DNA of 64,000 nt from Myxococcota bacterium (lineage in GTDB: Bacteria > Myxococcota > XYA12-FULL-58-9 > JABJBS01), in assembly GCA_036339465.1 (NCBI GenBank), contig JAYZAY010000067.1, positions 1 through 64,000 on the forward strand, written 5' to 3'. Positions 10,290 through 32,190 of the stretch are shown piece by piece. A program made the position numbers and the translations under genes. Below the pieces are notes generated by a model. The model was not told the origin of the DNA. It did no database searches and saw nothing but the letters and a program-made list of their open reading frames with translations. The stretch's first letter is position 1, and each line of letters starts with the position of its first letter.

Positions 10290-13200
10290 CTATTCCAATG
10301 CCCCCGTCAAGAGTAGATGTGTCCCCGAAGAATCCCTTTCAAGGTCACCGTCTGTCAACTCCCACACTGTGCCCGCAGGAACAACCCCTTCTGCGGCCAA
10401 GCTTCCGAGATCAAAAGAAGGCAAGGGAATACTACCAATCGTACTTGTTAAGAGGCGGGGCAAAATTAATTGCATCGCTTTCGCCAATAAATCACTCATT
10501 GGGCCTTGATAACCTTCATCATCGATTGCGACCACTTCCACCGCAATGGTTGGTGATTCGTCCATAAGGAGTTCCAATGTATTCGTCGTGGGATCAATAT
10601 CTAAGCCAGCCGAACTGAGAAGCGTGATATAAGCCCCAACCCTAATCTGGTCGTCATGCTCATCGTCCGAACCGAGCAGAGGTCGAAAATTAATATCGGC
10701 CTCAACATAAAGGTCCCCCATCCCCAACTCAAACTCTAGCCCATCAGCACCAGGCATCATCACAGGGGGTAACGCTGGTTCGAGCTTCAATGAAGCGATA
10801 GCCGATAGCTCACTATCACCCTCGCCCACCGACGCTAAATATCCCACAAGATCGTCAAAACTAAGCCCCCCCCCGTACCAAAGAGACCAAAGGACCTGGT
10901 TCAAAAGGTCGTCTTTCAAAGCAATACCGAACTCGTAGTCGCTGGGAGCATTTGAAAAAGTTGGAGTCGCGCCCCCACGAATAAGGGGGCCTTTCGCAGT
11001 TTCTGGGATTTCATTTCCGCGGGCGCTTGGATGTACTTGAACCGCCAGCCCAATTTGTCCGTAACTATCCCCAAAACCCTCAGCAAAATTCAGCTTATCA
11101 AAGCTACTATTCAAATTTAGGGTCATGTCGATGGGAGAAGGAATATCGAATTGGCTTTGAAGCGCAAAATTGGTCAGAAAATCCTGGAGAATCGGAGCAA
11201 TATTGTCCGCGATCACGTCCTCCATAGCATCCTCAACCAATCCTTTTACCAATGGCATCACCACAGATGTGACCGCATCGCACAAAAATTGTAATGGACC
11301 ACAATCCAATTCAACATCCGGGCTCGTAGTGCTTACCTGAGTAGACTCAATAGCCACTTGCGGCTGCCCTGCGACCAGAGCCAGTTTAACAGTCGCATCC
11401 ACAGTAATCGATTCCGCCACCACATCCCCAGCCAACGACGTTTTAACGGGCCCCGCACCGGGGTTGACCCCAATACACGTCAGCACCGCCCCTATGGCCT
11501 TGATGGGGAACCGAAACTCATTGGTGTGAATCTTTATCCTGATCCCACCCTCAACAACGTCAATGAAATCGATAAAAGGTCCATCGACCGTAACCCGGCG
11601 ATTCGAATCAGGATGCCTACCAATCCAATACCCACTGTCGGAAGCGAATTCCCAGCCACAAGGCTGTGTCCGCCATGGATCCTCGGCAAAAGTTGCACCG
11701 GCGGGCGCTAGGTCGTCAAAATCCAGCTTCAAGAGAATCGCCTCCCCCAAACTCGCCAAGTCGTCATAGGGCGATGGGCGGTGACCATCGTCCCAAATCG
11801 GTTGATTCAAGTGGGCCACAATCCCCGAGGTCATCTTTGCCTCTTCGAGCGGTGTCACCGCCGCCGGCCCATAAGCGGGGCCCCGAAGATATGAATGGGC
11901 GTGAACCCGTCGATTTCCACAACTATCCGCCGTCTCGCCCGTAATCAAATTGACGCCCCACTGGCTCGATTGTTCCTGGTAGAAATACTCAGTCAACGAT
12001 GTTCCACCCACACTTTCTCTCTGATCATTGATGACGAGCGACTCGACCGGACTCAAAGCATCTTGAATAAAACCATCGAGCGCCACAGGGGACACGTCGT
12101 AATCTCCCTGCCGCAGCATCTCCGCGCGTAGGGGGGATGAAAAATGAAACTGTGGCGGTGTAGAATCCACTCGAAAAGACGTCGCATAGGGCACCAAATC
12201 AGCGTCAGGATGAGTTTCCCCCATAACCTCGATAAAAATATCGTAATCGGCTTCTTTGGTGAGTCGATACCGGTTGTGGCCTAAAGTCTCCAGCCCATCC
12301 TCGGGAATCGCTGTAACCTGAACAATCGCATCCTCAATCACATTGTCCCACTTGTCATAAACCACCCAGTTCAGGGGCAAGTCACGGTCCTGCCAATAAC
12401 AATCCTGGGCCAATGCATCCACTTCCCAACCAAAAGCACGCCCGGGTAAAACCTCAACCCAAGCAGGCGATTCATCCCCCGCCATGATCCCCTGCCCTGC
12501 ACAAAAAACGTAATATTCTCCCGCGGCCGTCTCATGAAATTCCATTCCTGACAGTGCCTCAACCTCCGCAGAGCGATTCGCCCCCCGAACCATCACCCTA
12601 GGACTCACTCCGGTGACCGGATTGCCAAAAGCATCAAAGAATTCACAACTTACCGCAATATTTGAATCAGGAGTGGTTGTCGTTCGTTCAACCGTGGTCT
12701 CAGAGATTGTCGGCTCCCCTGTCAAAACCTCAAATGTTGCGGCAATCAATTCAGGGCTGAGATCATTCACCCCACAAACCACATCGTAGGTTCCAACTCG
12801 ACGCCCTTCCAGGGAAAAGTGGTTCACAGTACCAACACTGACCTCAACACCGCCGCTGGGAGAAACACTTAACGTCAGCCATCGTGAAGGGATTTCCACC
12901 GGATTATCGAAAACATCCGTAGCGATACAATCGGCCCCTGCTAAAACACCGGCTTGTTCTGAAGACTTTGTGACTGCCGCCTTTAAAAAAGCCACTCCCC
13001 CAGAAATTACTTCAATTTCCACGGGAAACGGATCGACGAACTCAGCTTCTTCAATGACACAAGCAAGTTCGTAATTCCCCACCTTGGTGGGAGCAATGCG
13101 AAAACTCCTGTTATCGATATTTTCGATCGCAAGTGCCGGACTCGAACGTAGGGCTAAAGTGGGCCAAGCCACGTCGCTCTCGTCGGGATCATTCAAATCA

Positions 13201-13388
13201 CATCGGACTTCCAAAGTTTCCCCTGCCATGAGTTTTTTGCCATCAACATACGTATCGATGACCCACGCCACATCGGCTGGCGTTAATTCGTTTTCCACCG
13301 ATAAAGGTTTTGAGCGACTACAAGCCGCCGACAAAACAACAGTACACACCAACAAAAGTAATAAACGAGCGGGAAAACGTACGATCAT
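10290..13388 (-). CDS. Large lipoprotein with Ig-like repeats and a probable BPI/LBP-like C-terminal module
   Basis: Lipobox LSAAC; repeated DxFxNPV and GxYxxxC Ig-like motifs; C-terminal GIVAHLNQ and LKDDLLNQVLWSLW segments. Confidence 0.7.
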   Translation of the reverse strand: MIVRFPARLLLLLVCTVVLSAACSRSKPLSVENELTPADVAWVIDTYVDGKKLMAGETLEVRCDLNDPDESDVAWPTLALRSSPALAIENIDNRSFRIAPTKVGNYELACVIEEAEFVDPFPVEIEVISGGVAFLKAAVTKSSEQAGVLAGADCIATDVFDNPVEIPSRWLTLSVSPSGGVEVSVGTVNHFSLEGRRVGTYDVVCGVNDLSPELIAATFEVLTGEPTISETTVERTTTTPDSNIAVSCEFFDAFGNPVTGVSPRVMVRGANRSAEVEALSGMEFHETAAGEYYVFCAGQGIMAGDESPAWVEVLPGRAFGWEVDALAQDCYWQDRDLPLNWVVYDKWDNVIEDAIVQVTAIPEDGLETLGHNRYRLTKEADYDIFIEVMGETHPDADLVPYATSFRVDSTPPQFHFSSPLRAEMLRQGDYDVSPVALDGFIQDALSPVESLVINDQRESVGGTSLTEYFYQEQSSQWGVNLITGETADSCGNRRVHAHSYLRGPAYGPAAVTPLEEAKMTSGIVAHLNQPIWDDGHRPSPYDDLASLGEAILLKLDFDDLAPAGATFAEDPWRTQPCGWEFASDSGYWIGRHPDSNRRVTVDGPFIDFIDVVEGGIRIKIHTNEFRFPIKAIGAVLTCIGVNPGAGPVKTSLAGDVVAESITVDATVKLALVAGQPQVAIESTQVSTTSPDVELDCGPLQFLCDAVTSVVMPLVKGLVEDAMEDVIADNIAPILQDFLTNFALQSQFDIPSPIDMTLNLNSSFDKLNFAEGFGDSYGQIGLAVQVHPSARGNEIPETAKGPLIRGGATPTFSNAPSDYEFGIALKDDLLNQVLWSLWYGGGLSFDDLVGYLASVGEGDSELSAIASLKLEPALPPVMMPGADGLEFELGMGDLYVEADINFRPLLGSDDEHDDQIRVGAYITLLSSAGLDIDPTTNTLELLMDESPTIAVEVVAIDDEGYQGPMSDLLAKAMQLILPRLLTSTIGSIPLPSFDLGSLAAEGVVPAGTVWELTDGDLERDSSGTHLLLTGALE

Positions 13389-13509
13389 GCCAGGAAGTCT
13401 AGAGTAAAAAACCAGGCATAGCATGGCGCAACGCATCATATTTTGCCAATTCCTTGACCTTCGTCACAAGACAGGGTGTATCTGTGATCGCGTTTCTTAC
13501 GAGTGAGTT

Positions 13510-16979: not shown

Positions 16980-17611
16980 ATCCGTAGAATTTTACGGTCC
17001 ATAGCGCTGATAGTCAAACCCTCTCTTCCATGAGCACAGGGCTATCGCGTTCGAACGGGCGCCCATGGCTTAGACAATCAGAGTGCCAAGGTTAATCGAA
17101 ACTCCACCAAGCTATTTTTCGGGTGTTTTTCAGCCCGAGCCTCCCAGGTCCACGTGAACCAACCTCCTGACGAGGAATACCGCGAGGCATATCCAAAGAC
17201 TCAGCCAGCCAATCCCCATGGAGTTCGCGGAACCACTGCATGGATGGTGCCTCACCCGCACCTTAGTAAGCGGCGCGAAAAGGGCTGCAAATAACCACGA
17301 GAAAAAGCGGGGCACCAAACCGCTAGACTAAATGTCGACCTTCTAAAACACTGAATTGCTAGGAGAAAACTTCACGTGTCATTGACAAGTTCTCAGGATA
17401 GCCATCTTACCCTTGGAGCTCTTTTTCTGCCCATTCCCTGTTTCGAACAACGCCCCCAAACCAAGTCCGCTGCTAGGACTCGAGCGTCCTTTCCACGGGC
17501 CTCTGCCGCTTTCTTGCCTCCATCATAAAACCCTTTAAAATTGGCGATAACCTTTTCAACAATCATATAAGACTCTTGAAAAGATTATCGCCGACGAAAG
17601 GGAATAGAGTC

Positions 17612-18673
17612 ATGGCACGGGAACAGCGTTGTCTCGGGGTGGATATCCGCTCATCAGGAATTCGGGCCTGTCACCTGCAGTCTCGTCGAGGTTTGCTTTA
17701 TCTCGATAAGTTTGGCTCGATAACGCTACCGGACTCTGCCGTCACCGACGGCGCCATCCAAGATATCGATACAGTGGCCGATGCCCTAAAAGAGGTCCTC
17801 GCAGCAAACAATATCCAGCAGAAACGAACCGCTTTCTCCGTGTCCGGGACTCGTGTAATCATCAAAAAGATAAGCATCCCCACAATGTCGCAATCTGAAC
17901 TGGAAAACTCCATCCGCTGGGAAGCCGAGCAGTTCATTCCTTTCGACTTAAATGAGATCTACTTGACCGCCTCTTTTCTCGACAAAAACCGAACTCCCGG
18001 CAGCCAGACCAACGTAGCCTTGGTCGCTGCAAAAAAGGAAGTGGTAGATTCTTATCAAGAAGTCCTCAGAAAATGCGGCCTAGAACCGATGATATGCGAC
18101 GTCGATGCATTCTCATTAGAAACCATGTTCCTAGAGAACTATGACCTTCGGCCGGGTCAAAAAGTGGCCCTTGTGCAGATAAATCGCGACCGTACGACCT
18201 TGAATATCCTCAATGACGGAATCAGCGACTTTACCCGCGACATCACCATTGGCTTTTCCGCGTTCATCAATAATTTAAAAACGCAACTGGGCATAACCTC
18301 CGAACAAGCCCTTCAGACTTTTCAAGCCGCCTGTTCAAATGAAGCACAAACATCGGCGCAATTGCCCCCCAACGTAAAAAAGGTTCTGCAGAGTAGCGTA
18401 GACTCGATTGCGACAGAGCTCCAGCGCTCCATAGATTTCTACACCAATACCAACTCGGAAAACCAACCCGGTCAAATTTTCCTTATGGGTTACCCATCAA
18501 AACTTGACATCTTACAAAAGAAAATTCATACCCAACTTGGATCTGAAGTTGCCATCGTCAATCCATTCAGACGTATTATTACGGATGACCACGATGAGAC
18601 TCTGTTAACTCAAGAAGCTCCCGGTGCCGCTATCTCTGTAGGGCTTGCATTACGTTATCCTGGAGACTGCTGA
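17612..18673 (+). CDS. pilM: Type IV pilus assembly protein PilM
   Basis: LGVDI, IRWEAEQFIPF, LVAAKKE, DVDAF, VGLALR; first gene of the MNOPQ cluster. Confidence 0.93.
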   Translation: MAREQRCLGVDIRSSGIRACHLQSRRGLLYLDKFGSITLPDSAVTDGAIQDIDTVADALKEVLAANNIQQKRTAFSVSGTRVIIKKISIPTMSQSELENSIRWEAEQFIPFDLNEIYLTASFLDKNRTPGSQTNVALVAAKKEVVDSYQEVLRKCGLEPMICDVDAFSLETMFLENYDLRPGQKVALVQINRDRTTLNILNDGISDFTRDITIGFSAFINNLKTQLGITSEQALQTFQAACSNEAQTSAQLPPNVKKVLQSSVDSIATELQRSIDFYTNTNSENQPGQIFLMGYPSKLDILQKKIHTQLGSEVAIVNPFRRIITDDHDETLLTQEAPGAAISVGLALRYPGDC

Positions 18674-19233
18674 TGCCAAGAATTAATCTGTTGCCAACAA
18701 AAGCAACCTGGCAAGGGAAACGAGTCAAAAAAGAACTCGCGATCGGCATTGGCCTCGCCGCAATTGTTCTGATTGGACTGTCTCTATTTCACGGCAATCT
18801 AATCGCCCAAGAAGAAGCATTGCTCGATGATATCAATGTTCTCAAACAGAGTCTCCTCAGTCTTCAAGCCGATAGCAGAAGAGTCGAGGACTTTGAAGAC
18901 AAAGCCAAACTCCTCGAACAAAAGCTAAAAGTCATCGATGAACTGCAAGTAACCAAGCACGGACCTTCCCATCTACTCTATGAGCTAACCAAAACATTAG
19001 ACAGGTTAAAGAGGGTTTGGTTAACTGAGGTCGATATCGGCGCTGCGGGTATCCTTAAACTACGGGGTGGAGCTATGGAAACTGAAGACGTATCAGACTT
19101 TCAAAGAGACATTAAAGCCAAGAGCGACCTTTTCTACGACCTAAAACTACACTCCGTCGACGCTCAGAAAACCAAAGATGTTTCATTTCTGAAATGGGAA
19201 ATTTCCACGCGCGTTCGATATGGAGACAACTAG
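18673..19233 (+). CDS. pilN: Type IV pilus assembly protein PilN
   Basis: N-terminal RINLLP motif, TM, coiled coil, VWLT. Confidence 0.92.
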   Translation: MPRINLLPTKATWQGKRVKKELAIGIGLAAIVLIGLSLFHGNLIAQEEALLDDINVLKQSLLSLQADSRRVEDFEDKAKLLEQKLKVIDELQVTKHGPSHLLYELTKTLDRLKRVWLTEVDIGAAGILKLRGGAMETEDVSDFQRDIKAKSDLFYDLKLHSVDAQKTKDVSFLKWEISTRVRYGDN

Positions 19234-19236
19234 GTC

Positions 19237-19812
19237 ATGGAAGGCCTACTCAAACAATATGGAGCACTGCCCCAAACCCAGCGTATCGGAATGCTCTTTC
19301 TCCCCATCATCTGTATCGTGGGGTTGTATTATACGATGTGGTATCAGGATCAACATGCGCGCATTGCCCAAAAAAAAGTGCAGCTCAAACAAACGTCGCA
19401 AGAAATAGCCAACAAAAGAGCCTACGCTCGGAATCTGACAAAGTACGAAGCCCGGATTGAGAAACAAAAACAACGTTTAGAGCATGCTCGTTCCCTCCTG
19501 CCTGACAACACCAACGTGGCTGAGCTTCTCGCCCAATTCGGTGCTAAAGCCGAACAAACAGGCCTGGAAATTAAATCTTTCAAACCCGGCGGAGTCACCA
19601 AACGAAAACTCTTTAGTGAAATTCAATTTGAAGTGCAGGTGGTGGGTAGCTTCCATGAAATTGCGACATTCATAGAGTCATTATCGCAGATCGATCAGAT
19701 TACGACAGTCGGCGCGTTTAGCATGCAACCTAAATCGTCCAATACTGAAGAGCATCTGAATCTAAACGCGCAACTCCAAGTGACAACCTTTCGTTTCAAC
19801 CGAGCGGGCTAA
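19237..19812 (+). CDS. pilO: Type IV pilus assembly protein PilO
   Basis: TM, coiled coil, LLP, GSFHEIATF; gene position. Confidence 0.92.
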   Translation: MEGLLKQYGALPQTQRIGMLFLPIICIVGLYYTMWYQDQHARIAQKKVQLKQTSQEIANKRAYARNLTKYEARIEKQKQRLEHARSLLPDNTNVAELLAQFGAKAEQTGLEIKSFKPGGVTKRKLFSEIQFEVQVVGSFHEIATFIESLSQIDQITTVGAFSMQPKSSNTEEHLNLNAQLQVTTFRFNRAG

Positions 19813-19815
19813 ACA

Positions 19816-20445
19816 ATGAGCACACCAATGAAACATCACTATTTCAAAGTGCCGCAGCCGCCCCCTATGCAACGATGCAGGTTCCTTTGTGTCTTTATCG
19901 CCTGCGTAGTTGGCTCCAGCTGTGATTTTGGTGACGATATGTCGCGTGACTCTGCGCTTAAAGCCGCGAAGTCACAACTTAAAAAGCAAAATGAAAAGAA
20001 AAAGAAAAAGAAAAAGGACAGCATAAAAGTGGGACAAACAGTGCAAACACCAACATCCTATTCAACCATAGGAATGCGCGACCCGTTTGAGTCCTATCTG
20101 GACACTTATTTGAATCTTCGACGAGGAGGGTTTGCGGGACCCGCTTCAGCCACCGAACGCTTCGAACTATCAGAGTACGTCTTAACAGGTATCGTTTCTG
20201 GCACAACAAAACCTAGAGCCATCGTTAAAGACCCAAGCGGCGAAGGACATATTATCAAGCTCGGCTCCCGCTTAGGCTTAAGCCGGGGCCGAGTTACCCG
20301 TATATCCAATAGAGAAGTTGTCGTTCGGGAAGAGCACCCAACACCTACTGGCGATAGAACCACGCTAACCCGTAGGCTTAAACTTCCCAGTGCAGAGAAG
20401 AGCTCCCTAGCTAACCCCACATCAAACAGAGACAGGAGGAACTAA
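19816..20445 (+). CDS. pilP: Type IV pilus lipoprotein PilP; start may be 19867
   Basis: Lipobox VGSSC, RDPF, ERFELSEYVLTGIV, DPSGEG. Confidence 0.9.
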   Translation: MSTPMKHHYFKVPQPPPMQRCRFLCVFIACVVGSSCDFGDDMSRDSALKAAKSQLKKQNEKKKKKKKDSIKVGQTVQTPTSYSTIGMRDPFESYLDTYLNLRRGGFAGPASATERFELSEYVLTGIVSGTTKPRAIVKDPSGEGHIIKLGSRLGLSRGRVTRISNREVVVREEHPTPTGDRTTLTRRLKLPSAEKSSLANPTSNRDRRN

Positions 20446-20448
20446 GGA

Positions 20449-23400
20449 GTGAAAACCAAGATTATTAATAAATCACAAAACCAAAAAAATCACTTTTTAG
20501 CGTTCAGCCCCACTCCCTGGGCTACTGCCTTTATTACACTCATTGTATTTGCAGGAACTCTCCACGCCGATACATCACTCAACAAGGTACGTGACCTACT
20601 GGTGAGTCAAATAGGAAACTCACGTCTTATCCAAATCAAAACTGATTCGAAACCCACTTTTACGGTTTTCAAACTCAATAATCCCCTAAGGGTGGTTGTG
20701 GATATTTCGGGCGGCGATGTGTCTGACCTGTCGCAGCCACAACTCCTGGAAGATCCTGTTTTGGGCCAAATTGCGACAAGACAGTTTTCCAGTAGCAATC
20801 AGAACGTAGGTCGAATTATCTTAGGCTTTGCTCAACCCGTGAACTATGAAGTTGCTAGCAAAGCAGATGGACTTGAAATTCAAGTAACCCCCACAGCCCC
20901 AGAGGAAAATCCTCTATCGGCGATTGCTCCACCCAGCCCCCCCTTAGACCCCAAAGAAAAACAGAGACTCGCAGAGAAGAAACGAAAGCTTAAAGAGAAA
21001 GAAAACAGTCTCAACGCAGGAAAAAACAGTCTCCAAAAGAAAGAAAAAGAGATTCGTGAAAAAAATATCAAACTCATAAAATCTCAAGCAATCTTGGAGA
21101 AGAAACAGAATCTGATTGCAGAGAAACAAGCTGTATTAAAAAAAGAGTATTCCGATATCACGCGGCAAAAGAACAAACTTCAAGAGAAGGAAAACAGTTT
21201 AAATACGGGAGAAAACAGTCTTCAAAAGAAAGAAAAAGAGATTCGTGAAAAAAATGACAAAATCATAGAAGCTCAAGCAATCTTGGAGAAGAAGCAGAAT
21301 CTGATTGCAGAAAAACAAGCTGTATTAAAGAAAGAATATTCCAATATCACGCGGCAAAAGAAGAAACTTCAAGAGAAGGAAAACAGTTTAAATATCGGGG
21401 AAAACAGCCTTCAAAAGAAAAAAAGAGAGATTCGTGAAAAAAATATCAAACTCATAAAATCTCAATTAATATTAAGGGAGCACCAGAATCTGATTGTAGC
21501 GAAACAAGCTACCTTGAACAAAAAAGAGTCCAATATCAGGCAGCAGAAGCGGAGACTTCATGAAAAAGAGAACAGTTTAAAGGCAGGAAAAAACAGCCTT
21601 CAAGAAAAAGAAAAAGAAATTCGAGGAAAAACTCTCCAACTGATAAAATCTCAAGCAATTATAGAGAAGCAACAAAACATGATTGCAGCGAAACAAGCTG
21701 CCTTGATCAAAAAAGAGTCCAACCTCAGGCTGCAAAAGAAGAAACTTCAAGAAAAAGAGAACAGTTTAAAGACAGGAGAAAGCAGCCTTCAACAAAAAGA
21801 AAGAGAGATTCGTGAAAAAAATATCAAACTCATAAAATCCAAAGCAATATTAGAAAAGCAGCAAAACCAGATTGCAGCGAAACAAGCTGCCTTGATTAAA
21901 AAAGACTCCAATATCAAACGGAAAAACCATAATCTTCAGGAGAAAGAAAACAGTTTGAATACGGGAGAAAACAGCCTTCAAGAGAAAGAAAGAAAGATTC
22001 GCGAAAGAGATCTCGAGCTAAAGCAATATCAAGAAATTTTAGAGAAGCAGCAAAACCAGATTGCTGAAAAACAAGCTGCCTTGATTGAAAAAGATTCTAA
22101 TATCAGACAGCAAAAGCGGAATCTTCAAGATAAAGAAAACAGTATAAAAACAGGAGAAAAGAGCCTCCAAGAGAAAGAAAAAGAGATTCGTGAAAAAAAT
22201 CTCAGACTGAAAAACTCCCAAGCAATGTTAGAGAAGCAGCAGAATCAGGTGACAGAGAAGCAAGCTGCCTTGAGCAAAAGATATTCCGCTCTCATGGTAA
22301 AAGAAACAGAAATTAACTCAAAAGATGGCAACCTAATTCAAGAAAGAGAGCAATTGAACGCAAAATTGGAGAACCTCGCTTCTCAAGAAAAAGAGATCTC
22401 CCTGCGAAGGAAGGCCAATCAAAAACTTGAAGTAACATTAAAACAAGAGCGAAGTGAACTTTCAGAGGAAAGAAAAACATTCATCACACACAGACTGAAA
22501 ACCCTAAAGGAGCTTAAAGAGCAAAAGGAAAATATCCAAGAGAAAAAGAAAAACCTCAAAAGAGAGCAGGATGCTCGCATAGAACTGTATAAAAATATGC
22601 GGTTGCCCAATCAATCCACTTCCAGTGGCGTCCTTACAAAGATCCACCATCAAAGCAGCACCAGTGGCCTCGTTCTGAAACTAAACCTCAAGGGAAACCC
22701 CCAGATTAACATACTGCGACTAGACACACCACCTCGTATCGTGATCGACATGCAAAACACGAAGCTAAGCTCGCCACAAAAAACGTTGCCGTTAGAAACA
22801 AAAGAAGCGATCAAAGTGCGGTTCGGTGAACATAAAAATATTCTCAGAGCGGTAATCGATCTCAAATCGAATCAACTGGAGCACCATATTTCCCGGCAAG
22901 ACGCCGGTCTCGTGGTAAATCTAAATGTCCGACAAAAATCCTTGGGCACCGACAAAAGAAAACAGGAGCTTACGGATCGACATAGGAAGCTACAGGAGAA
23001 AGAACACGACTTAAAAACAGCAGAAAACCGGCTTCAAGAGAAAGAAAGCGTAATTCGGACAAAAAATATCAAACTGGAAAAAGCTCAAGCAAGCTTGCAG
23101 CATCAACAGAGTCTCGTTGTCGCGAAACAAGCTTCCTGGAACAGAAAATATTCCAACCTCAAGGAAAAAGAAGTCCAAATTGACGCCAAAAGTGAAAACC
23201 TGAAACAAGAAAAAGGCCAATTAAACCTGAAATGGGAAAAACTCGCCACGCAAGAGAAAGAGATCTCCCTGCGAAAAAAGAGCAATCAAAAACACGAAAT
23301 GGCATTGAAACAAGAGCGAATTGAACTTTCGCAGGAAAGAAAAGCATTCATAACACAAAAGATGGAAGCTCTAGATGAGCTCAAGCAACAACAACAAGAG

Positions 23401-25611
23401 TTCCAAGAGAAAAAGAAAAACCTCAAAAGAGAAAACGACTATCGCAGAGAACGAGAAAAAAACGTGAGGTTACCCAAGCAATCCACATCCAGCGGCACCC
23501 TCACCAAGGTTCACCACAAAAGTGACATCAATGGCCTCGTTCTGAAACTAAACCTTAAAGGCAGCCCCCAGATTAACGTACAGCGATTAGACACACCACC
23601 TCGTCTCGTGATCGACATGCAAAACACGAAGCTAAGTTCCCCTCAGAAAACCTATCATTTGGAAACAGATGAAGCGGTCAAGGTGCGATTCGGTGAACAT
23701 AAAGACATGCTCAGAGCGGTAATCGATCTCAAATCAAGTCATCTGGCACACCATATTTCCCGAAAAGAAGAAGGCCTCATGGTAAGTTTGAACGCCGGAC
23801 AAAACTCCTTAGGTGTCAAAGGTGAAGGGGGCCCTGAATCAGTTGAACCGTTGACAATCAAAAATATTCGCTTCGAACGCAATGGCAATATAGCCCGGAT
23901 CATCGTTGAGGTACCGAGTGCTCCTCTGCCCAACATCGATACACGGTCAAAAAAGGCATTGATCCTCAACCTCGCCAACTGTGTCCTACCAAAATCGCTT
24001 GAGGAAAGTTTGGATACGAAAGCTTATGGCACCTTGGTTAAAATGATATCGAGCTATCAATCCAGCTCGGGAGCACCGAATGTAAAGATCGTTGCGCATG
24101 TTGCTGGCCCCGCAAAGCACCGCCTATTCCGAAAAGGAGAGGAAATCATTTGGGACATCGCCCCCAATCAGGAAATGGCTCGGAACGAAAGTAGCTCTAA
24201 AACCTCTACCCCAAAGACTGCGGGCTTTTCCGTTGCCGCCCGAGGCGTGAGCGATGCGTTCATTACCAGTAGGGACCGAGGCCAGAAAAACAAAGAACTT
24301 AAACAGCGTATTACCCTCGACCTTAAAGAAGCCGAAATCCTCACTGTTCTACGAATGCTTTCGGATATATCGGGAGAGAACATGATCGCGAGTGATGCTA
24401 TCAGCGGCACCGTTACCATTCGACTGCGAAACGTACCTTGGGACCAAGCATTAGACACCATCCTGAGAACCAAAGGCTACGCTCGTGTACGACAAAACAA
24501 TATCATGCGTATTGCTCCCGCCGCCGTCATTAGGAAGGAGCGAGAGCAAGAGTTGGCGCAACAAAAAGCCCAAATCGCCATCGAGAACATGGCGATCAAA
24601 TTGATTACCATTAACTATGCACTCGCCAGTGATATCGTTGGCCAGATAAAACCACTACTTACAGAGAGGGGAAGTATTCAAGTTGATGACCGCACCAACA
24701 CGATTATCGTCGATGATATTATATCGAATATCGATCGGGTCGTTGAGCTCAGTCGCAGGCTGGACAAACAAATCCCACAAGTTCTAATCGAGTCTCGGAT
24801 TGTAGAGGCATCCAGCAGTGAAAGCCAAGGACTGGGTATCCAATGGGGAGGCTTGGGCCAACGAACTGCGGCTGAAGGAAATCCTACCGGTTTACAATTC
24901 CCAAGCAACATCGTCATAAGTGGTGCTGCTTCCGATGGGCAAACCAATACGGCCGCCAATTACTCTCCCTCCCAATATGCCGTCAACTTGCCGGCTCCCA
25001 TTGGAGCAGGGGTAGGCGGTGGTATCGGCATGATCTTTGGTAGCGCCGGTGGTAGCCAACTCTTGGCACTCCGGCTATCGGCCATGGAAGAGAGGGGCTC
25101 TGGTCGGATCATCAGCTCTCCAAGAATAACCACACTGGACAACCGAACCGCGAAGATTTCATCGGGGATTTCAATCCCGGTGAGCACAACTTCAGCCAAT
25201 GGTACCAACACAAAGTTTGTTGCCGCAAACCTCGCGTTAGAAGTGACACCCCATGTAACCAATGATGGTAGCGTCCTGATGAAAATTAAGACAACGAAGA
25301 ATGAAGCGGATTTTTCTCGAACCGGAGGCAACGGAGATCCCAGTATCCTAAACAAACAGGCTGAAACAGAGGTCCTCGTCGCCGATGGAGATACGACCGT
25401 GATCGGGGGTATTTACACGCGGTCGAATTCAGAAACCTACGCTGGTGTGCCCTTCTTCTCGGATATTCCAATCATTGGCTGGCTCTTCAAGAAGAGGAGT
25501 CAACAGGACAAGCGTTCCGAACTCCTGATCTTCATAACCCCGAGGATTGTAAACCGAGAAGAATCGCTCATGCAGAGCAATCAAAGCGTATTAAATGAAG
25601 ACAAACGCTAG
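20449..25611 (+). CDS. pilQ: Type IV pilus secretin PilQ, unusually long (four AMIN-like domains, coiled-coil inserts)
   Basis: AMIN motifs (LNNPLRVVVD, LDTPPRIVID, LDTPPRLVID), VPWDQALD, DDRTNTIIV, QVLIESRIVE, LEVTPHV, ELLIFITPRI. Confidence 0.96.
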   Translation: MKTKIINKSQNQKNHFLAFSPTPWATAFITLIVFAGTLHADTSLNKVRDLLVSQIGNSRLIQIKTDSKPTFTVFKLNNPLRVVVDISGGDVSDLSQPQLLEDPVLGQIATRQFSSSNQNVGRIILGFAQPVNYEVASKADGLEIQVTPTAPEENPLSAIAPPSPPLDPKEKQRLAEKKRKLKEKENSLNAGKNSLQKKEKEIREKNIKLIKSQAILEKKQNLIAEKQAVLKKEYSDITRQKNKLQEKENSLNTGENSLQKKEKEIREKNDKIIEAQAILEKKQNLIAEKQAVLKKEYSNITRQKKKLQEKENSLNIGENSLQKKKREIREKNIKLIKSQLILREHQNLIVAKQATLNKKESNIRQQKRRLHEKENSLKAGKNSLQEKEKEIRGKTLQLIKSQAIIEKQQNMIAAKQAALIKKESNLRLQKKKLQEKENSLKTGESSLQQKEREIREKNIKLIKSKAILEKQQNQIAAKQAALIKKDSNIKRKNHNLQEKENSLNTGENSLQEKERKIRERDLELKQYQEILEKQQNQIAEKQAALIEKDSNIRQQKRNLQDKENSIKTGEKSLQEKEKEIREKNLRLKNSQAMLEKQQNQVTEKQAALSKRYSALMVKETEINSKDGNLIQEREQLNAKLENLASQEKEISLRRKANQKLEVTLKQERSELSEERKTFITHRLKTLKELKEQKENIQEKKKNLKREQDARIELYKNMRLPNQSTSSGVLTKIHHQSSTSGLVLKLNLKGNPQINILRLDTPPRIVIDMQNTKLSSPQKTLPLETKEAIKVRFGEHKNILRAVIDLKSNQLEHHISRQDAGLVVNLNVRQKSLGTDKRKQELTDRHRKLQEKEHDLKTAENRLQEKESVIRTKNIKLEKAQASLQHQQSLVVAKQASWNRKYSNLKEKEVQIDAKSENLKQEKGQLNLKWEKLATQEKEISLRKKSNQKHEMALKQERIELSQERKAFITQKMEALDELKQQQQEFQEKKKNLKRENDYRREREKNVRLPKQSTSSGTLTKVHHKSDINGLVLKLNLKGSPQINVQRLDTPPRLVIDMQNTKLSSPQKTYHLETDEAVKVRFGEHKDMLRAVIDLKSSHLAHHISRKEEGLMVSLNAGQNSLGVKGEGGPESVEPLTIKNIRFERNGNIARIIVEVPSAPLPNIDTRSKKALILNLANCVLPKSLEESLDTKAYGTLVKMISSYQSSSGAPNVKIVAHVAGPAKHRLFRKGEEIIWDIAPNQEMARNESSSKTSTPKTAGFSVAARGVSDAFITSRDRGQKNKELKQRITLDLKEAEILTVLRMLSDISGENMIASDAISGTVTIRLRNVPWDQALDTILRTKGYARVRQNNIMRIAPAAVIRKEREQELAQQKAQIAIENMAIKLITINYALASDIVGQIKPLLTERGSIQVDDRTNTIIVDDIISNIDRVVELSRRLDKQIPQVLIESRIVEASSSESQGLGIQWGGLGQRTAAEGNPTGLQFPSNIVISGAASDGQTNTAANYSPSQYAVNLPAPIGAGVGGGIGMIFGSAGGSQLLALRLSAMEERGSGRIISSPRITTLDNRTAKISSGISIPVSTTSANGTNTKFVAANLALEVTPHVTNDGSVLMKIKTTKNEADFSRTGGNGDPSILNKQAETEVLVADGDTTVIGGIYTRSNSETYAGVPFFSDIPIIGWLFKKRSQQDKRSELLIFITPRIVNREESLMQSNQSVLNEDKR
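20990..22300 (+). repeat. Seven tandem 189-bp (63-aa) repeats inside pilQ
   Basis: GAAAACAGT (ENS) recurs at 21001, 21190 ... 22135, a 189-bp period. Confidence 0.93.
22120..23795 (+). repeat. 867-bp (289-aa) internal duplication in pilQ (coiled coil + AMIN); ends approximate
   Basis: GTGATCGACATGCAAAACACGAAGCTAAG occurs at 22741 and 23608; the proteins align on both sides. Confidence 0.9.
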
Positions 25612-25644: not shown

Positions 25645-27411
25645 ATGTTAGAATTGAGTTCCAAACTGCCCGCACGGACTGGCCGGAGTTCGAACAAGAG
25701 TCACCGACAAACGAAGGCGACAACTTCAAAACTGACGCGTCCCATTGCCCTCGTTGGGTTCATGGCCAGCGGAAAAAGTTCCATAGGAAAACTCTTAGCA
25801 AAGCGACTAAAACTTGAATTCATTGATCTCGATCAAGAAATTGAAGCCCTCGCAAACATGTCAATTTCACAGATTTTTAAGAGCGAAGGTGAAGTGGCTT
25901 TTCGCGCCTTTGAGCGAGGTACACTCCGGGAAATACTTGGCCGAGCGAACCAAGATTTTGTCCTAGCGACAGGAGGTGGCACCTTCGTGGATCAAACGAT
26001 GCGTGAAAATCTCCTCAAAGGTTCGACGACCGTATTTCTTGAGGCGAGTCTCGAAACCATCTTGGCAAGACTCAATGAAGATGAATTGGAAGACCGACCT
26101 TTGGCCCAAGGGCCCGACCGCAGCCGACAATTGGCCAAGCTACTTGAATCAAGGCTTCCCTCCTATGAACGTTGTCACAGAACCATTCGCACCGACTTCA
26201 AAGATAAGGATGAGATCGTTGACGGTATCATAGTGAAGCTTGGTTTAGAGACAAAAAAAGGCGGCAATCTTACCGCGCAAACAGAGTTGCATCGCCCCAA
26301 AAATGCAGACAACAGCCCAGCGAAAAGTCCAGAGCTGAAGTTGATTCAAGTCCATGCAGAAGCACACGATTACGAGGTAGTCATCTCCGAGAAACTAGGA
26401 CAACATTGCTTAGAATCCATCCAAAATCGCACTAAAGGAAGGCAATTGGTCGTTCTCACCGACAGTACCGTCGCCAACCTGCACGCAGCCGACACCCTGA
26501 ATCTTCTTCGGTCCAGTAACTTCGAAGAAGTCCATATTTTACAAGTTGACCCAGGGGAAGCTTCGAAAAGTATGGGAACGGCATCACGACTCTACGACCA
26601 ATTACTAACCCTAAACTTAAACCGAAACGATGCTCTCATTGCCCTCGGGGGAGGCGTCGTAGGTGACCTCGGCGGTTTCGTGGCCTCGACTTTCTTAAGA
26701 GGCTTGGACTTTTACCAAATTCCCACCACCACCCTAGCTGCCGTCGATTCCAGTGTAGGTGGAAAAACGGCCGTAAATTTGCCCCGAGGAAAAAACCTCG
26801 TCGGCACATTCTATCCTCCCAAGGGAGTATTCATCGCCCTAAGCCATCTGCAAACCCAAACCCCTAGGGGACACGCTGCAGGATTGATGGAAAGCCTCAA
26901 AATGGCCGCAACCCACGATAAGAATCTTTTTCACGAAATGACCAACCATACCGACAACCTCATCAACTTTAATAGCGAACTTATCCAAGCCACGATTGCT
27001 AGGAGCGTGGAAATCAAAGCCAAAGTAGTCTCACAGGATGAACGAGAAAGTGGGGGCCGGGCGGTTTTGAATTTTGGCCATACAGTAGGGCATGCCATTG
27101 AAGCCGGCTCAAACTTTGAAATGCTCCATGGGGAAGCCGTGGCTTTGGGCATGCTCGCGGAAGCACAATGGGCCGAAATGGAAGGTTTTTCCTCAGGGGT
27201 AAGCACCCAGATCCGAGAAGCCATTGCTAAATTAGGCTTCAAAACCGAGTGGAGACGTTACCCCATTGATCTTGAAGCCATGCTGGTTGACAAAAAACGG
27301 GTTGGGAGTGGCGTTACCGTCCCCGTGGTCGATACATTAGGGCATTTTGAATTTAAGACCGTACCCATTTCATCAATCGCAGAATTTGTAAACCGAAGGA
27401 GAGCATCATGA
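25645..27411 (+). CDS. aroB: Shikimate kinase / 3-dehydroquinate synthase fusion (AroK-AroB)
   Basis: GFMASGKS, DLD and GGG (AroK), then GGGVVGD, PTT, DSSVGGKT and LNFGHTVGHAIE (AroB). Confidence 0.95.
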   Translation: MLELSSKLPARTGRSSNKSHRQTKATTSKLTRPIALVGFMASGKSSIGKLLAKRLKLEFIDLDQEIEALANMSISQIFKSEGEVAFRAFERGTLREILGRANQDFVLATGGGTFVDQTMRENLLKGSTTVFLEASLETILARLNEDELEDRPLAQGPDRSRQLAKLLESRLPSYERCHRTIRTDFKDKDEIVDGIIVKLGLETKKGGNLTAQTELHRPKNADNSPAKSPELKLIQVHAEAHDYEVVISEKLGQHCLESIQNRTKGRQLVVLTDSTVANLHAADTLNLLRSSNFEEVHILQVDPGEASKSMGTASRLYDQLLTLNLNRNDALIALGGGVVGDLGGFVASTFLRGLDFYQIPTTTLAAVDSSVGGKTAVNLPRGKNLVGTFYPPKGVFIALSHLQTQTPRGHAAGLMESLKMAATHDKNLFHEMTNHTDNLINFNSELIQATIARSVEIKAKVVSQDERESGGRAVLNFGHTVGHAIEAGSNFEMLHGEAVALGMLAEAQWAEMEGFSSGVSTQIREAIAKLGFKTEWRRYPIDLEAMLVDKKRVGSGVTVPVVDTLGHFEFKTVPISSIAEFVNRRRAS

Positions 27412-28427
27412 AAACCTGGAAAACGTTGGTCAGCTTACTTGCCATCGCCCAATTATCTTGTGCAGCCGAACCGGGAAATGTTTTTGAGGTCGTCCGGCTC
27501 CTAGACGCGAGCGCAACCTGCCAATACGATCTAGGAGACAACACCTTCCCATCCCGGGTGACTTTCGATGCGGCAAGTGTGGGTGCAAGCTTCGTCGGTT
27601 TTGGTCTACGAAACCATATGAGCACTGCCGATACACAAACAGTGGAAACAGCCGAGGGCATCAGTTTGCGCTCACAGGTAAACACACTCACCCTCAAGGG
27701 CTTCGAAATTTGTATTACCTTGGCCGTACCCAACGAAATTGATCCCGTGGATTGTGCCTCCATAGACGGCAGCGCCGCCCTTCAGGCAAAGCAATTTTAC
27801 CGCACCACCTCGGTGATTCCACCCGCCCCTGACCTCAGTGGCGGCGAAATCAACGCTGCGGCGATGATCAAGTTATTTGACAGCGACACCCTTGCCTCTC
27901 TCTTTGGGAATGAATTCAATGCGGGCAGTCTGAGGGATTTGGTCGTTCGCAAATACCAGAGTACTGCTGCAGCAAACAACACAGCCGCCAATTGCGCCGG
28001 TAATTCAACATCCGATGCAGGCGTGAAGGCCATTCGCTACGGTCTGGGCAACGGATGCGATTTTGGCACGGCGGGTTCGGCTCCCATTGGCCTATTCAAC
28101 AGCGACGTCCCACAAAATACAAGCTCTCGAGAATTCATGATTCAAGTCACGGCCATCGCCAACAATGCCGCCGGTAGCGAAATTAGGTCCAGTACTTTTA
28201 GATTTCCCGCCACCATTTGTATCGGCTGTAATCAGAGCGATGCTCAAAGCAGTGAAGGGCTGAGCTGCCCTGGCATCAGCGCTTGCGATGAAAACGACCC
28301 AGACAAAGGGTTCGAGGGATTTCAACCCGCCATCGAGAAAAGCTATTGCTATCCTGCCACACGGCAAGGCGCCCTAGAAAAGGACCACACGAAGGTTTTC
28401 ACCTGTGAAAAACTAGAATGCGAATAA
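27408..28427 (+). CDS. Cys-rich hypothetical lipoprotein
   Basis: Lipobox QLSC; ATGA overlap with aroB; FPATICIGC. Confidence 0.75.
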   Translation: MKTWKTLVSLLAIAQLSCAAEPGNVFEVVRLLDASATCQYDLGDNTFPSRVTFDAASVGASFVGFGLRNHMSTADTQTVETAEGISLRSQVNTLTLKGFEICITLAVPNEIDPVDCASIDGSAALQAKQFYRTTSVIPPAPDLSGGEINAAAMIKLFDSDTLASLFGNEFNAGSLRDLVVRKYQSTAAANNTAANCAGNSTSDAGVKAIRYGLGNGCDFGTAGSAPIGLFNSDVPQNTSSREFMIQVTAIANNAAGSEIRSSTFRFPATICIGCNQSDAQSSEGLSCPGISACDENDPDKGFEGFQPAIEKSYCYPATRQGALEKDHTKVFTCEKLECE

Positions 28428-28503
28428 ACAGATAAGATGGATTGCCCTCAAATATCGACAGCAAATATTGACAGAAAATCAAGTCCGGCATAGCTCAATA
28501 CCC

Positions 28504-29052
28504 ATGGAACCGATTCTTTGGAACAACCCCACCATGGCAGAACTCTATGCAGGTCAGGGACACCTCGCACATGCCATCTGTATCTATAAAATATGTGTTG
28601 GAAACGACCCCGCCAATGATGCCTTAAAGGAGCGATTGATTCAGCTCACCCAACAATTGGCAACCAAAGGAAACGACATGGGATTCTCAGAGCTCTTAGA
28701 AGAATACTGTCAGGAAACCCCTGGCGTTCTTGGCATCTGCATCTCTGGGATGGATGGCCTATCCATCGCCTCCCACCAATTGGATGGTTTAACTGTGGAT
28801 ATTGCAGATCTCAGTACTGAATTTTCGATACTTTTTAAACAAACCAGCGAGCTCCCCTCCCTACCCGGAGGAAATTCCATTAAGAATGTGACTGAATATT
28901 CTGTCCGCTATGAAGAGCTGACGGTTGTACTCATAACCATTGACGAAAACTTCTTCGTGCTTTTGGCCCTAAGTCCGCAAGCCATTGTGGGCCGCTCCAT
29001 TCACGGAGTGAAAATGCTTTTGCCGCAACTCAAGAAACTCCTGAGCGCCTAG
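28504..29052 (+). CDS. Roadblock/LC7 protein (MglC-like) with N-terminal TPR-like extension
   Basis: Roadblock motif GMDGLSI and alpha/beta pattern from Met 28678; position between pilQ and efp; upstream in-frame TMAELYAGQGH. Confidence 0.7.
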   Translation: MEPILWNNPTMAELYAGQGHLAHAICIYKICVGNDPANDALKERLIQLTQQLATKGNDMGFSELLEEYCQETPGVLGICISGMDGLSIASHQLDGLTVDIADLSTEFSILFKQTSELPSLPGGNSIKNVTEYSVRYEELTVVLITIDENFFVLLALSPQAIVGRSIHGVKMLLPQLKKLLSA

Positions 29053-29090: not shown

Positions 29091-29519
29091 ATGAAAATCG
29101 GCATCATCAACGGCCCAAATCTGAACCTACTGGGATCCCGAGAGCCACAGATTTATGGAACAACCCCCCTTGAAGAACTAAACGAGGGACTCAAAACCTT
29201 CGGTCAATCGCTCAACATGTCACTCTCATTTTTCCAGAGTAATCACGAAGGCGAGCTCATTGACCATATCCACAGCCTAAGGGGTGCCGTGGATGGGCTT
29301 GTTGTCAACGCTGGGGCCTTCACCCACACCTCCCTAGCGCTCAAAGATGCCCTCGCTGCCACCGAAATCCCGTTTATTGAAGTGCATTTATCAAATATTT
29401 ATGCGCGGGAAGCCTATCGCCATCATTCCTACTTGAGCTCTATGGCTCGTGGTTGTATTTGCGGCTTCGGAATCGATACCTACAAACTCGCACTGCAGGC
29501 CTGGACATTCTTGCCGTAA
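29091..29519 (+). CDS. aroQ: Type II 3-dehydroquinate dehydratase
   Basis: NGPNLNLLGSREPQIYG, QSNHEG, NAGAFTHTS, EVHLSN. Confidence 0.97.
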   Translation: MKIGIINGPNLNLLGSREPQIYGTTPLEELNEGLKTFGQSLNMSLSFFQSNHEGELIDHIHSLRGAVDGLVVNAGAFTHTSLALKDALAATEIPFIEVHLSNIYAREAYRHHSYLSSMARGCICGFGIDTYKLALQAWTFLP

Positions 29520-29563
29520 GCGAGTCAATGCCGCCTTCGCGCAGCATAGAGGAGAACAAGAAA

Positions 29564-30127
29564 ATGCTTAATACCAGTGACTTCCGCAATGGCCTCAAGA
29601 TTGAGTACCAGGGTGAACCTTACATTATTGTTGAGTTTCAGCACGTAAAGCCCGGAAAGGGCAATGCTTTTACACGAACCAAAATTAAGAATCTCCTCAG
29701 CGGGCGGGTCCTAGACCCCACCTTCAAATCCGGGGAAAAAGTTGGAAAACCCGACATCGAAGAAAAAGATATGCAGTATCTGTATCGAGAGGGCGAACAC
29801 TACGTCTGCATGGACAACACCACCTATGAGCAGGTCGTCGTCGATCAGGAAGCAGTTGGTGATCAAGCAACCTGGCTGAAAGAAAACGACCCGGTTTCCG
29901 TGCTTTTCTGGAACGGAAGTCCCATCACGGTTGAAGTGGAAAAACATGTGGTTCTTCAAATCACACACTGCGAACCCGGAGTTCGGGGCGATACAGCAAC
30001 TGGTGCTAGCAAACCTGCCACCCTAGAGACCGGGGCTGTAGTTCAAGTTCCTATTTTCATTAATGAAGGTGAAAATATTAAGGTCGATACCCGAACCGGT
30101 TCCTACCTAGAACGCGTCAACGATTGA
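29564..30127 (+). CDS. efp: Elongation factor P
   Basis: HVKPGKGNAF, PGVRGDT, KPATLETG; GAGGAG upstream. Confidence 0.98.
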   Translation: MLNTSDFRNGLKIEYQGEPYIIVEFQHVKPGKGNAFTRTKIKNLLSGRVLDPTFKSGEKVGKPDIEEKDMQYLYREGEHYVCMDNTTYEQVVVDQEAVGDQATWLKENDPVSVLFWNGSPITVEVEKHVVLQITHCEPGVRGDTATGASKPATLETGAVVQVPIFINEGENIKVDTRTGSYLERVND

Positions 30128-31208: not shown

Positions 31209-31955
31209 TCATAGATTGGAAACACGCGCCAACCAATCGATCATCCAATCCTTTTCCCGCCACACCAACAATACCTCCACCGAATCTCCCGCCAACAAAT
31301 AGTTTGCCACCAAATTTTGCCGAGTTTTTGGGGAATTATTTAGGCCCGGCCCTGGAAAGCTCACCCGAAAAGTGCCCACTTTTTTACCTTTAAACTTAGG
31401 CGCAAGTGACAAACTTAAAACATTCAATTCCAGCTCAAGCGCCACATAGGGAAAAGCCCCTCGTCGTACGGAGCGAACCGTCGCCCGCGATAAATCCTGC
31501 TCCCGCGGTCGAGCTAATTTGGCAAAAGAGACCGTCTTTCCCACCCGAATTGACCCACCAGATTCTGACCCAGTATTGGCCGCTGCCCCAAACCCCAACC
31601 TCGAAAGCATTGTCAGGGGATCCTCCCCCGCTCGAATCATCTCTAAGTTCACGAGACGCTTCAATAAATCGCTAATCCTCACCCCTCCGATGGTCCATGT
31701 ATTTCCCTTTTGCCGTAAATAAAATTCCGATTTATCGTATTGGTCTTGAAGAACCTGAAACGTGCTTTTGGCATCGAATTCATCACTGATCACAAAGACC
31801 AATTCCTTACCCTTAATGGAAAACGATTGCACTGCCCCCGCTTGATACCCACCATCACTCAGGCGAATCAAAACGGTATCTTCCCCATAGGCTTGGGGGA
31901 GACCCAACATGAAGACTAAGAGCATAAAAAGAGAACGCACAAAAATACGAAACAC
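31209..31955 (-). CDS. Hypothetical exported protein
   Basis: Signal peptide ending QAYG; start trimmed from 32054 to avoid overlap with the divergent gene. Confidence 0.65.
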   Translation of the reverse strand: MFRIFVRSLFMLLVFMLGLPQAYGEDTVLIRLSDGGYQAGAVQSFSIKGKELVFVISDEFDAKSTFQVLQDQYDKSEFYLRQKGNTWTIGGVRISDLLKRLVNLEMIRAGEDPLTMLSRLGFGAAANTGSESGGSIRVGKTVSFAKLARPREQDLSRATVRSVRRGAFPYVALELELNVLSLSLAPKFKGKKVGTFRVSFPGPGLNNSPKTRQNLVANYLLAGDSVEVLLVWREKDWMIDWLARVSNL

Positions 31956-32190
31956 TGGACCCCCAATTTTCCGACCAACCTCCAATATACAGATACTGGT
32001 GGCCAAAACCGCTCCTAGCATTAAAGACGGGATAATTAGTACATGCGTTCCCAAAACTAAACAAGTTCATCGCACCCTGGGCCAAGCCTTTCACCGCCCA
32101 ATTAAACACGGCAAAGAAGATCTGATTGTTGCGATTCCCGCGATTTCGATGTCTATACACATAGGCTTCCGACAGAGAAACAACCAAAAC

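Follow-up and report, generated by a model that had tools for sequence, protein, structure and literature searches.

An uncultured member of the Myxococcota encodes a type IV pilus secretin, PilQ, in which two long predicted helices separate the AMIN domains that bind peptidoglycan. The gene lies in a stretch of 64,000 nucleotides (positions 1 to 64,000 of contig JAYZAY010000067.1, assembly GCA_036339465.1), hereafter the window; the host genome assembly comprises 4.17 Mb in 102 contigs. The reading that we favor, with a confidence slightly short of even, is that this protein is a functional type IVa pilus PilQ with four AMIN domains held apart by two rigid helical rods, which may act as outriggers in the plane of the cell wall.

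The open reading frame (ORF) at 20449–25611 (+) encodes 1720 amino acids (aa) and starts with a GTG codon 4 nt past the stop codon of pilP. Sequence profiles identify its product as PilQ: it matches NCBIfam TIGR02515 with 425 bits against a cutoff of 284, and its Pfam matches to Secretin, Secretin_N, STN and type_II_gspD_N0 are all above cutoff, while AMIN is matched over four stretches (E = 7.4e-38). The gene is also the last of a pilMNOPQ operon. The order of the domains, all on the forward strand, is signal peptide, AMIN1, rod 1, AMIN2, rod 2, AMIN3, AMIN4, N0, N1 and secretin. The predicted Sec signal peptide (aa 1 to ~40; 20449–20568) was read by eye from the translation and presents a hydrophobic core and an LHA/D site without a lipobox Cys. 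AMIN1 (aa ~41–145; 20569–20883), one of the four Pfam stretches, was matched by a purpose-built AMIN hidden Markov model (HMM; 5.6e-41) and is followed by a Pro-rich hinge (aa 146–170; 20884–20958) ending in PPLDPKE. Rod 1 consists of a repeat array (aa 171–611; 20959–22281) and a non-repeat helical tail (aa 612–717; 22282–22599). AMIN2 (aa ~726–826; 22624–22926) contains the best Pfam AMIN stretch (737–824; purpose-built HMM 2.6e-51) and precedes rod 2 (aa 834–1004; 22948–23460). AMIN3 (aa ~1015–1115; 23491–23793) was delimited with the purpose-built HMM and by self-alignment, and the divergent AMIN4, beside N0, has approximate bounds only (aa ~1129–1235; 23833–24153; fourth Pfam stretch, partial HMM match 1129–1175). 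The remainder of the protein contains the N0/STN domain (aa 1290–1357; 24316–24519; Pfam type_II_gspD_N0 and STN), Secretin_N (aa 1384–1444; 24598–24780; 1.5e-09) and the secretin pore domain (aa 1545–1701; 25081–25551; 1e-48). We also observed PF27881.1 in the precomputed Pfam list of P0002, the database copy of this PilQ; this family may be a more recent model that spans some portion of the protein.

The array between AMIN1 and AMIN2 is highly regular. Tandem Repeats Finder reported a period of 189 nt with 6.9 copies at 20984–22287 (80% matches and 0% indels), and a separate repeat search placed seven copies at an exact spacing of 189 nt from position 20976. In frame, these copies form seven units of 63 aa, that is, nine heptads each, starting at aa 171, 234, 297, 360, 423, 486 and 549. 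The copies share 69–85% identity at the nucleotide level and 54–76% at the protein level. The most frequent residues of aa 171–735 are Lys (108), Glu (77), Leu (65) and Gln (60), and the sole Pro of this region sits at its C-terminal side, past the helix. The initial annotation of this DNA, made by a model from the sequence without database searches, had described a 1720-aa PilQ with seven Lys/Glu/Gln-rich, proline-free repeats of 189 bp and nine heptads located between the first two AMIN domains, and each of these points agrees with our results. Beyond it stand the second rod at aa 834–1004, the duplicated AMIN domain and the frequency of rods among relatives. Apart from rod 2 of pilQ itself, no other occurrence of the repeat unit was found in the host genome. 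We infer that tandem duplication built up the array from a unit whose length, in residues, is exactly divisible by seven. Over all 21 pairs of copies, the synonymous divergence (dS) ranged from 0.26 to 1.69 and the ratio of nonsynonymous to synonymous divergence (dN/dS) from 0.12 to 0.69, indicating at the codon level that the copies are old and under purifying selection.

Structure prediction points to a nearly continuous helix in rod 1. Using AlphaFold2 without an alignment, helices were predicted at aa 171–500 and 510–717 with a mean predicted local distance difference test (pLDDT) score of 71.6, or ~547 helical residues including the tail. The AlphaFold check proposed in the initial annotation thereby supports a helical insert, with one reservation: the helix is broken at aa 501–509, over the motif NSLNTGENS (NTGEN) of copy 6. 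This is the sole break, and the predicted helix runs through the equivalent motif in six of the seven units. Rod 2 was predicted as one uninterrupted helix of 171 residues (aa 834–1004; pLDDT 78–93). That model covered aa 726–1240, likewise without an alignment, and its AMIN domains scored below 50, such that the rod-2 helix alone is usable.

The heptad pattern is equally marked. One heptad position is strongly hydrophobic throughout the seven units (63 of 63 heptads), and the register runs without a break over aa ~174–669 of rod 1 and aa 835 to ~961 of rod 2. Counting 71 heptads from aa 171, the stripe position is L in 46, I in 23, V in one and N in the last. The position located +4 from this stripe is E (23), Q (20), K (11) or N (6), and the position at +3 is mostly K (38), followed by Q (10) and G (7). 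Each 63-aa unit presents one conserved Gly at the same heptad position in the seven units. The longest run of hydrophobic residues in the same register reaches 69 heptads, relative to at most eight in 200 shuffled sequences, and the z-score of the period-7 power is 57–64. The net charge of the rod is +50 over 497 residues (+0.092 per residue). Pairs of opposite charges at i,i+4 number 50 versus 37.6 ± 5.0 in shuffled sequences, an excess of ~2.5 standard deviations. Part of this regularity is a trivial result of duplicating a unit of 9 × 7 residues. Because the unit is a multiple of seven, because no indel has accumulated despite the observed dS, and because dN/dS remains at 0.12–0.69, these results nevertheless suggest selection for an unbroken helical face.

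A canonical coiled coil requires two hydrophobic core positions. The rod presents the heptad periodicity expected of a left-handed coiled coil, but only a single position is hydrophobic rather than both a and d. The initial annotation had called the region a coiled-coil insert; its predicted helicity and heptad periodicity are in line with this description, whereas the second core position, occupied by E, Q, K or N, is not. Single alpha-helix (SAH) domains are devoid of a hydrophobic seam. The rod resembles ER/K SAH domains in being a long, highly charged and Pro-free predicted helix, but the Leu/Ile/Val stripe, present in 70 of 71 heptads, sets it apart from them. As far as its residues tell, the pattern is unlike a textbook coiled coil and unlike an ER/K single helix. 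In a helical-wheel projection, the Leu stripe lies between the Lys and the Glu/Gln positions, an arrangement that would allow K–E contacts over a narrow interface. Searching the rod-1 model against the PDB with Foldseek returned no match at E ≤ 10. Pfam searches of the rods alone yielded only matches below cutoff, namely RNase_Y_N (the best, with 26.4 bits against 32), DUF4686 and DUF6611.

An array of this type could be an assembly artefact, a repeat that was expanded or made chimeric when the metagenome-assembled genome (MAG) was built. The fragmentation of the assembly into 102 contigs is compatible with this explanation, as is the fact that contigs from other runs do not span the array. 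However, the copies differ by 15–31%, the reading frame is intact, dN/dS is below 1 in 21 of 21 pairs, and the longest exact repeat within the array is 40 nt, so that a short-read assembly is able to distinguish the copies. We further aligned contigs from four public runs of four studies to positions 20300–23500. The resulting pieces, 156–692 nt long, match copy-specific sequence at 95–100%, with no joints or indels reported, and all seven copies are touched by runs other than the best-matching one, which may correspond to the source sample. These pieces bridge the start of the array, junctions 1/2, 2/3, 4/5, 5/6 and 6/7, and the end of the array; among the matches listed, junction 3/4 (~21543) has no bridge with at least 31 nt on each side. 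Since no public-run contig spans the whole array, the copy number of seven rests on the assembly together with this consistent tiling. An artefact appears extremely improbable, as the initial annotation had already argued from the divergence of the copies. At least part of the stretch was detected in 20 runs from 10 marine or seawater studies, and RNA-labelled public runs contain 0.07–0.16 of the sampled words.

Rod 2 appears to derive from rod 1. The segment formed by the last unit, the tail and AMIN2 (aa 546–832) aligns to aa 835–1121 without gaps and with 179 of 286 residues identical. Rod 2 can accordingly be described as one diverged 63-aa unit followed by a copy of the rod-1 tail, and AMIN3 as a duplicate of AMIN2. 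This alignment suggests that a later segmental duplication of unit, tail and AMIN produced the second rod and an extra AMIN domain, giving four in total. The same order (tail, AMIN2, rod 2, AMIN3, AMIN4) is found in P0122, a 682-aa fragment from another population. A search among shorter proteins returned only two fragments, P0122 and P0210, both of which begin after the array, and no repeat array of close relatives was found in a scan of metagenome contigs. The counting of repeats in relatives, as proposed in the initial annotation, thus met no array in these close fragments; other PilQ rods present tandem periods of their own (see below). Using the rod as a query against 1.84 billion representatives, we obtained 88 matches at E ≤ 0.001, two of which were examined: P0122 proved to be related, and P0123 was rejected as an unrelated repeat protein.

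We then looked at the distribution of such rods in other Myxococcota. PilQ was found in all 40 of the closest genomes, and the linker between AMIN1 and AMIN2 was read in 20. Ten of these 20 possess linkers of 188–653 aa that are rich in A/E/R/K/Q and poor in Pro and Gly (two from the same family, seven from the same order and one from another family). The other linkers are short and Pro/Ala-rich in nine genomes and K/T/S-rich, with 146 aa, in one. The database search considered PilQ proteins of 946–3010 aa and gave 1385 matches at E ≤ 1e-20 among 7995 candidates scored. Among the best 119 of these proteins (≥946 aa), at least 41 present a first linker that is 150 aa or longer and contains no more than 7% Pro+Gly, in which 35–53% of the residues are charged or Gln; short linkers (68–289 aa) contain instead 9–33% Pro+Gly. 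The number 41 is a lower bound because the AMIN HMM missed the second AMIN domain in many proteins longer than 1200 aa; P0098, for example, contains a rod of ~900 residues that was read directly from its sequence. P0030 (1677 aa) has four detected AMIN domains alternating with three rods. Those database relatives that bear a name are MAGs of Myxococcota or "Deltaproteobacteria". These linkers indicate, at the sequence level, that Pro/Gly-poor, charged and presumably helical connections of 170–840 aa exist in many Myxococcota PilQs, and the uniqueness implied by the initial annotation is not upheld.

The protein of the window nonetheless occupies an extreme position. Of 401 genomes sampled across the Myxococcota, 364 gave a PilQ match (one of the 401, flagged as unpublished, entered no other comparison), and among the 150 PilQ matches listed the window's ORF is the longest, followed by proteins of 1430, 1422, 1386 and 1328 aa. 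Its closest PilQ relatives, with 65–66% identity over the core, measure 1003–1033 aa and contain helical linkers of 167–192 aa, so the expansion to 1720 aa is specific to this lineage. Most rods of the relatives are Ala/Glu/Arg-rich and non-repetitive, and their longest same-register runs cover 2–16 heptads versus 69 here. Their net charge per residue has a median of 0.022 (range −0.02 to 0.10), which places the rod of the window near the top. Tandem periods were nevertheless found in other long PilQ rods: 21 residues in P0111, 42 in P0091 and P0101, 126 in P0106 and 11 in P0109 and P0064; a period of 14 residues was likewise present among them. This pattern suggests that rods may repeatedly grow in helix-compatible steps, by multiples of 7 or 11. 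The hinge motif PP..P[VIL]D..ER[LFI] after AMIN1 is similar in relatives (loci L013–L028), whereas the rod sequences are not conserved. Judging from these comparisons, the property that seems conserved across the clade is physical, namely a long, Pro-free and charged helix, rather than a sequence or an exact length.

The organization of this PilQ differs from that of the systems studied so far. The PilQ of Myxococcus xanthus is described with three AMIN domains that are "connected by flexible linkers" and needed both to form multimers and to be recruited to the wall at septa and poles (PMC10653833). Both proteins come from the same phylum and share the N0/N1/secretin core and multiple N-terminal AMIN domains, but the PilQ of the window has four AMIN domains and is about twice as long. 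The named PilQs of Myxococcaceae are 43–47% identical to it over aa 1130–1720. Linkers of the Myxococcaceae type measure 74–130 aa with 19–25% Pro+Gly, in contrast to the Pro-free predicted helices of 547 and 171 residues found here. The rod-bearing PilQs of uncultured Myxococcota share the same plan (AMIN1, long charged Pro/Gly-poor helix, AMIN2, secretin), but most of them are Ala/Glu/Arg-rich with interrupted heptads, whereas the rod of the window is Lys/Glu/Gln/Asn-rich and keeps one register over its whole run of 69 heptads. The distinguishing features of the window's PilQ are thus the nine-heptad tandem array under purifying selection, the second rod and the fourth AMIN domain. An architecture separate from PilQ, in which AMIN is fused to a TolA-like charged helix, was reported in delta-proteobacteria by de Souza et al. 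2008 (PMC2572700); among Pfam matches of our rods at E ≤ 1, no TolA family was found. Our full-text searches for helical or coiled-coil inserts in PilQ returned no publication, subscription-only journals being outside their coverage. Rod-bearing PilQs apparently form a widespread and undescribed class, frequent among marine myxobacteria that have not been cultured.

For a repeat at this position, the nearest precedent comes from Neisseria meningitidis, whose small basic repeats (SBR) lie between the first two beta (AMIN) domains of PilQ. The SBR are reported to affect pilus formation and to contribute to DNA binding (PMC3441751, PMC2884949), and they consist of a few copies of low-complexity octapeptides, such elements being "unprecedented within the secretin family" (PMC3441751). 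Both proteins place basic tandem repeats between their first and second AMIN domains; those of the window are, however, 63-residue heptad-phased units predicted to be helical, totaling 441 residues, instead of octapeptides. By analogy, the rods might be basic helices that bind polyanions such as incoming DNA or anionic components of the wall or lipids. The net charge of +50 over 497 residues, near the top of the range of relatives, would fit this possibility, as would the reports that the SBR-containing N-terminal region of Neisseria PilQ, at the equivalent site, contributes to DNA binding (PMC3441751, PMC2884949). Polyanion binding, however, leaves the strict Leu stripe unexplained. Moreover, most rods of the relatives are near neutral, so charge is not the conserved property, and we regard this explanation as distinctly improbable.

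The lengths of the rods bear on their orientation. An alpha helix extends by ~0.15 nm per residue, such that straight helices would measure ~82 nm for rod 1, in agreement with the ~80 nm calculated in the initial annotation for a continuous helix, and ~26 nm for rod 2. The periplasm is usually ~25–35 nm deep, and PilN, PilO and PilP connect the inner membrane to the secretin. Raw length alone would be in favor of a spacer that crosses the envelope in an unusually wide periplasm. The genes located directly upstream of pilQ on the same strand were identified with Pfam as pilM (17576–18673 (+); PilM_2, E = 1.4e-60), pilN (18673–19233 (+); PilN, 9.5e-08), pilO (19237–19812 (+); PilO, 1.7e-26, profile positions 2–144 of 145) and pilP (19816–20445 (+); PilP, 1.7e-11). 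PilN, PilO and PilP are of ordinary size (186, 191 and 209 aa) and match Pfam over their full length without inserts. In relatives, the pair of ORFs that precedes pilQ, taken as PilO and PilP from position alone, measures 179–209 aa in rod-bearing and rod-less loci alike (19 loci), except at L028 (see below), and their sizes do not track rod length, which itself varies five-fold among related genomes. The rods exceed the depth of a normal periplasm, and PilN, PilO and PilP show no matching increase in length. The rods would therefore be unable to cross the envelope, which is probably of normal width, and would lie roughly in the plane of the wall or fold back. A very wide envelope, one of the three consequences put forward in the initial annotation, is very improbable. 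Lateral tethers, the second one, correspond to the reading we favor, although as a deduction, and a folded-back bundle, the third, stands as a rival.

Most likely, the rods would run along the plane of the cell wall as outriggers. AMIN3 and AMIN4 would grip the wall beside the pore, AMIN2 would reach ~25 nm out, and AMIN1 up to ~80 nm beyond. With 12–15 protomers per secretin, this arrangement would form a wide multi-point anchor, which could spread the load of retraction, capture the wall at the septum or pole at an early stage of outside-in assembly and hold the machines apart. That Lys borders the single Leu stripe on one side and Glu/Gln on the other suggests that the rods would pair side by side, probably between neighboring protomers, rather than stand as free helices. 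We favor in-plane outriggers because the physical property of the rods is conserved and because the predicted helix runs through six of the seven Gly motifs and through the whole of rod 2.

In the main alternative geometry, the rods fold back compactly as antiparallel hairpins or bundles, and the AMIN domains remain close to the secretin while the insert forms a bulky periplasmic collar or cushion. The predicted break over NTGEN in copy 6 (aa 501–509) is consistent with such a fold, as is the conserved Gly in each 63-aa unit, and an antiparallel segment of the same chain could supply the partner that the single Leu stripe needs. On the other hand, AlphaFold2 maintains the helix through the motif in the six remaining units and returns rod 2 as one helix of 171 residues, and aa 171–717 are without Pro or loop-like segments. 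Monomer predictions with AlphaFold2 also tend to fold long helices back regardless. We consider a fold-back unlikely, but as a possibility to be taken seriously.

Several points weigh against the outriggers themselves. The geometry of lateral tethers is deduced purely from lengths. The second core position of the heptad is E/Q/K/N (or K in the other numbering), so stable pairing of the rods is not assured, and a charge of +50 would oppose self-association unless screened or balanced by K–E contacts. The break at aa 501–509 in the model would make a hairpin of about half the length possible. Rod length varies widely in relatives (170–840 aa), and some members of the same family or order (G002, G016, G011 and G009) possess only linkers of 82–146 aa that are non-helical; it follows that no particular reach is essential. 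Finally, one locus is the sole exception to the uniform size of the upstream ORFs: L028 (G023), with a rod of ~650 aa, presents larger ORFs of 236 and 245 aa.

A more elaborate arrangement would extend the outriggers to neighboring machines. The 12–15 arms of each pore would pair through their Leu stripes within a machine and, with staggered 63-aa units, between the rods of neighboring secretins, forming a wall-anchored in-plane lattice of ~100 nm radius that would set the spacing of polar pili in an array and carry the retraction load. The units, 54–76% identical and in a single register, make pairing out of register by whole units sterically possible, and relatives also build rods from tandem units. 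Yet most rods of the relatives are non-repetitive, with runs of 2–16 heptads against 69, so the general function of the rods cannot depend on repeats. We view such a lattice as quite unlikely. If it were real, rod length would constitute an evolvable ruler, tuned by the gain or loss of heptad-multiple units, and the rods would add to secretins a new kind of architectural element in the periplasm.

The AMIN domains decide where the type IV pilus machine assembles and tie the machines to the wall. To our knowledge, every PilQ that has been studied carries these domains on short flexible linkers beside the pore. A branch of uncultured and mostly marine Myxococcota appears instead to space them with stiff helices that would be tens of nanometers long, and the PilQ of the window is an extreme case, with two rods, four AMIN domains and exact nine-heptad growth under purifying selection. 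If the rods do lie in the plane of the wall, they would brace or space an envelope-spanning machine in a new manner, and would also provide a natural setting in which to ask at what distance from the pore anchoring to the wall can act.

Other genes of the window were also annotated. Directly after pilQ, in the same operon, lies an aroK-aroB fusion in a single ORF of 588 aa (25645–27411 (+); Pfam SKI, DHQ_synthase and DHQS_C), with aroQ (29091–29519) and efp (29453–30127) further downstream. Between aroKB and aroQ, the ORFs at 27408–28427 (+; 339 aa) and 28468–29052 (+; 194 aa) presented no Pfam match at E ≤ 0.01. Elsewhere, no Pfam match at E ≤ 1e-5 was obtained for the ORFs at 10290–13439 (−; 1049 aa) and 31909–35640 (+; 1243 aa). 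The ORF at 36133–43656 (+) encodes a protein of 2507 aa that combines PD40/WD40-like repeats, many TPR repeats and a C-terminal CHAT protease-like domain.

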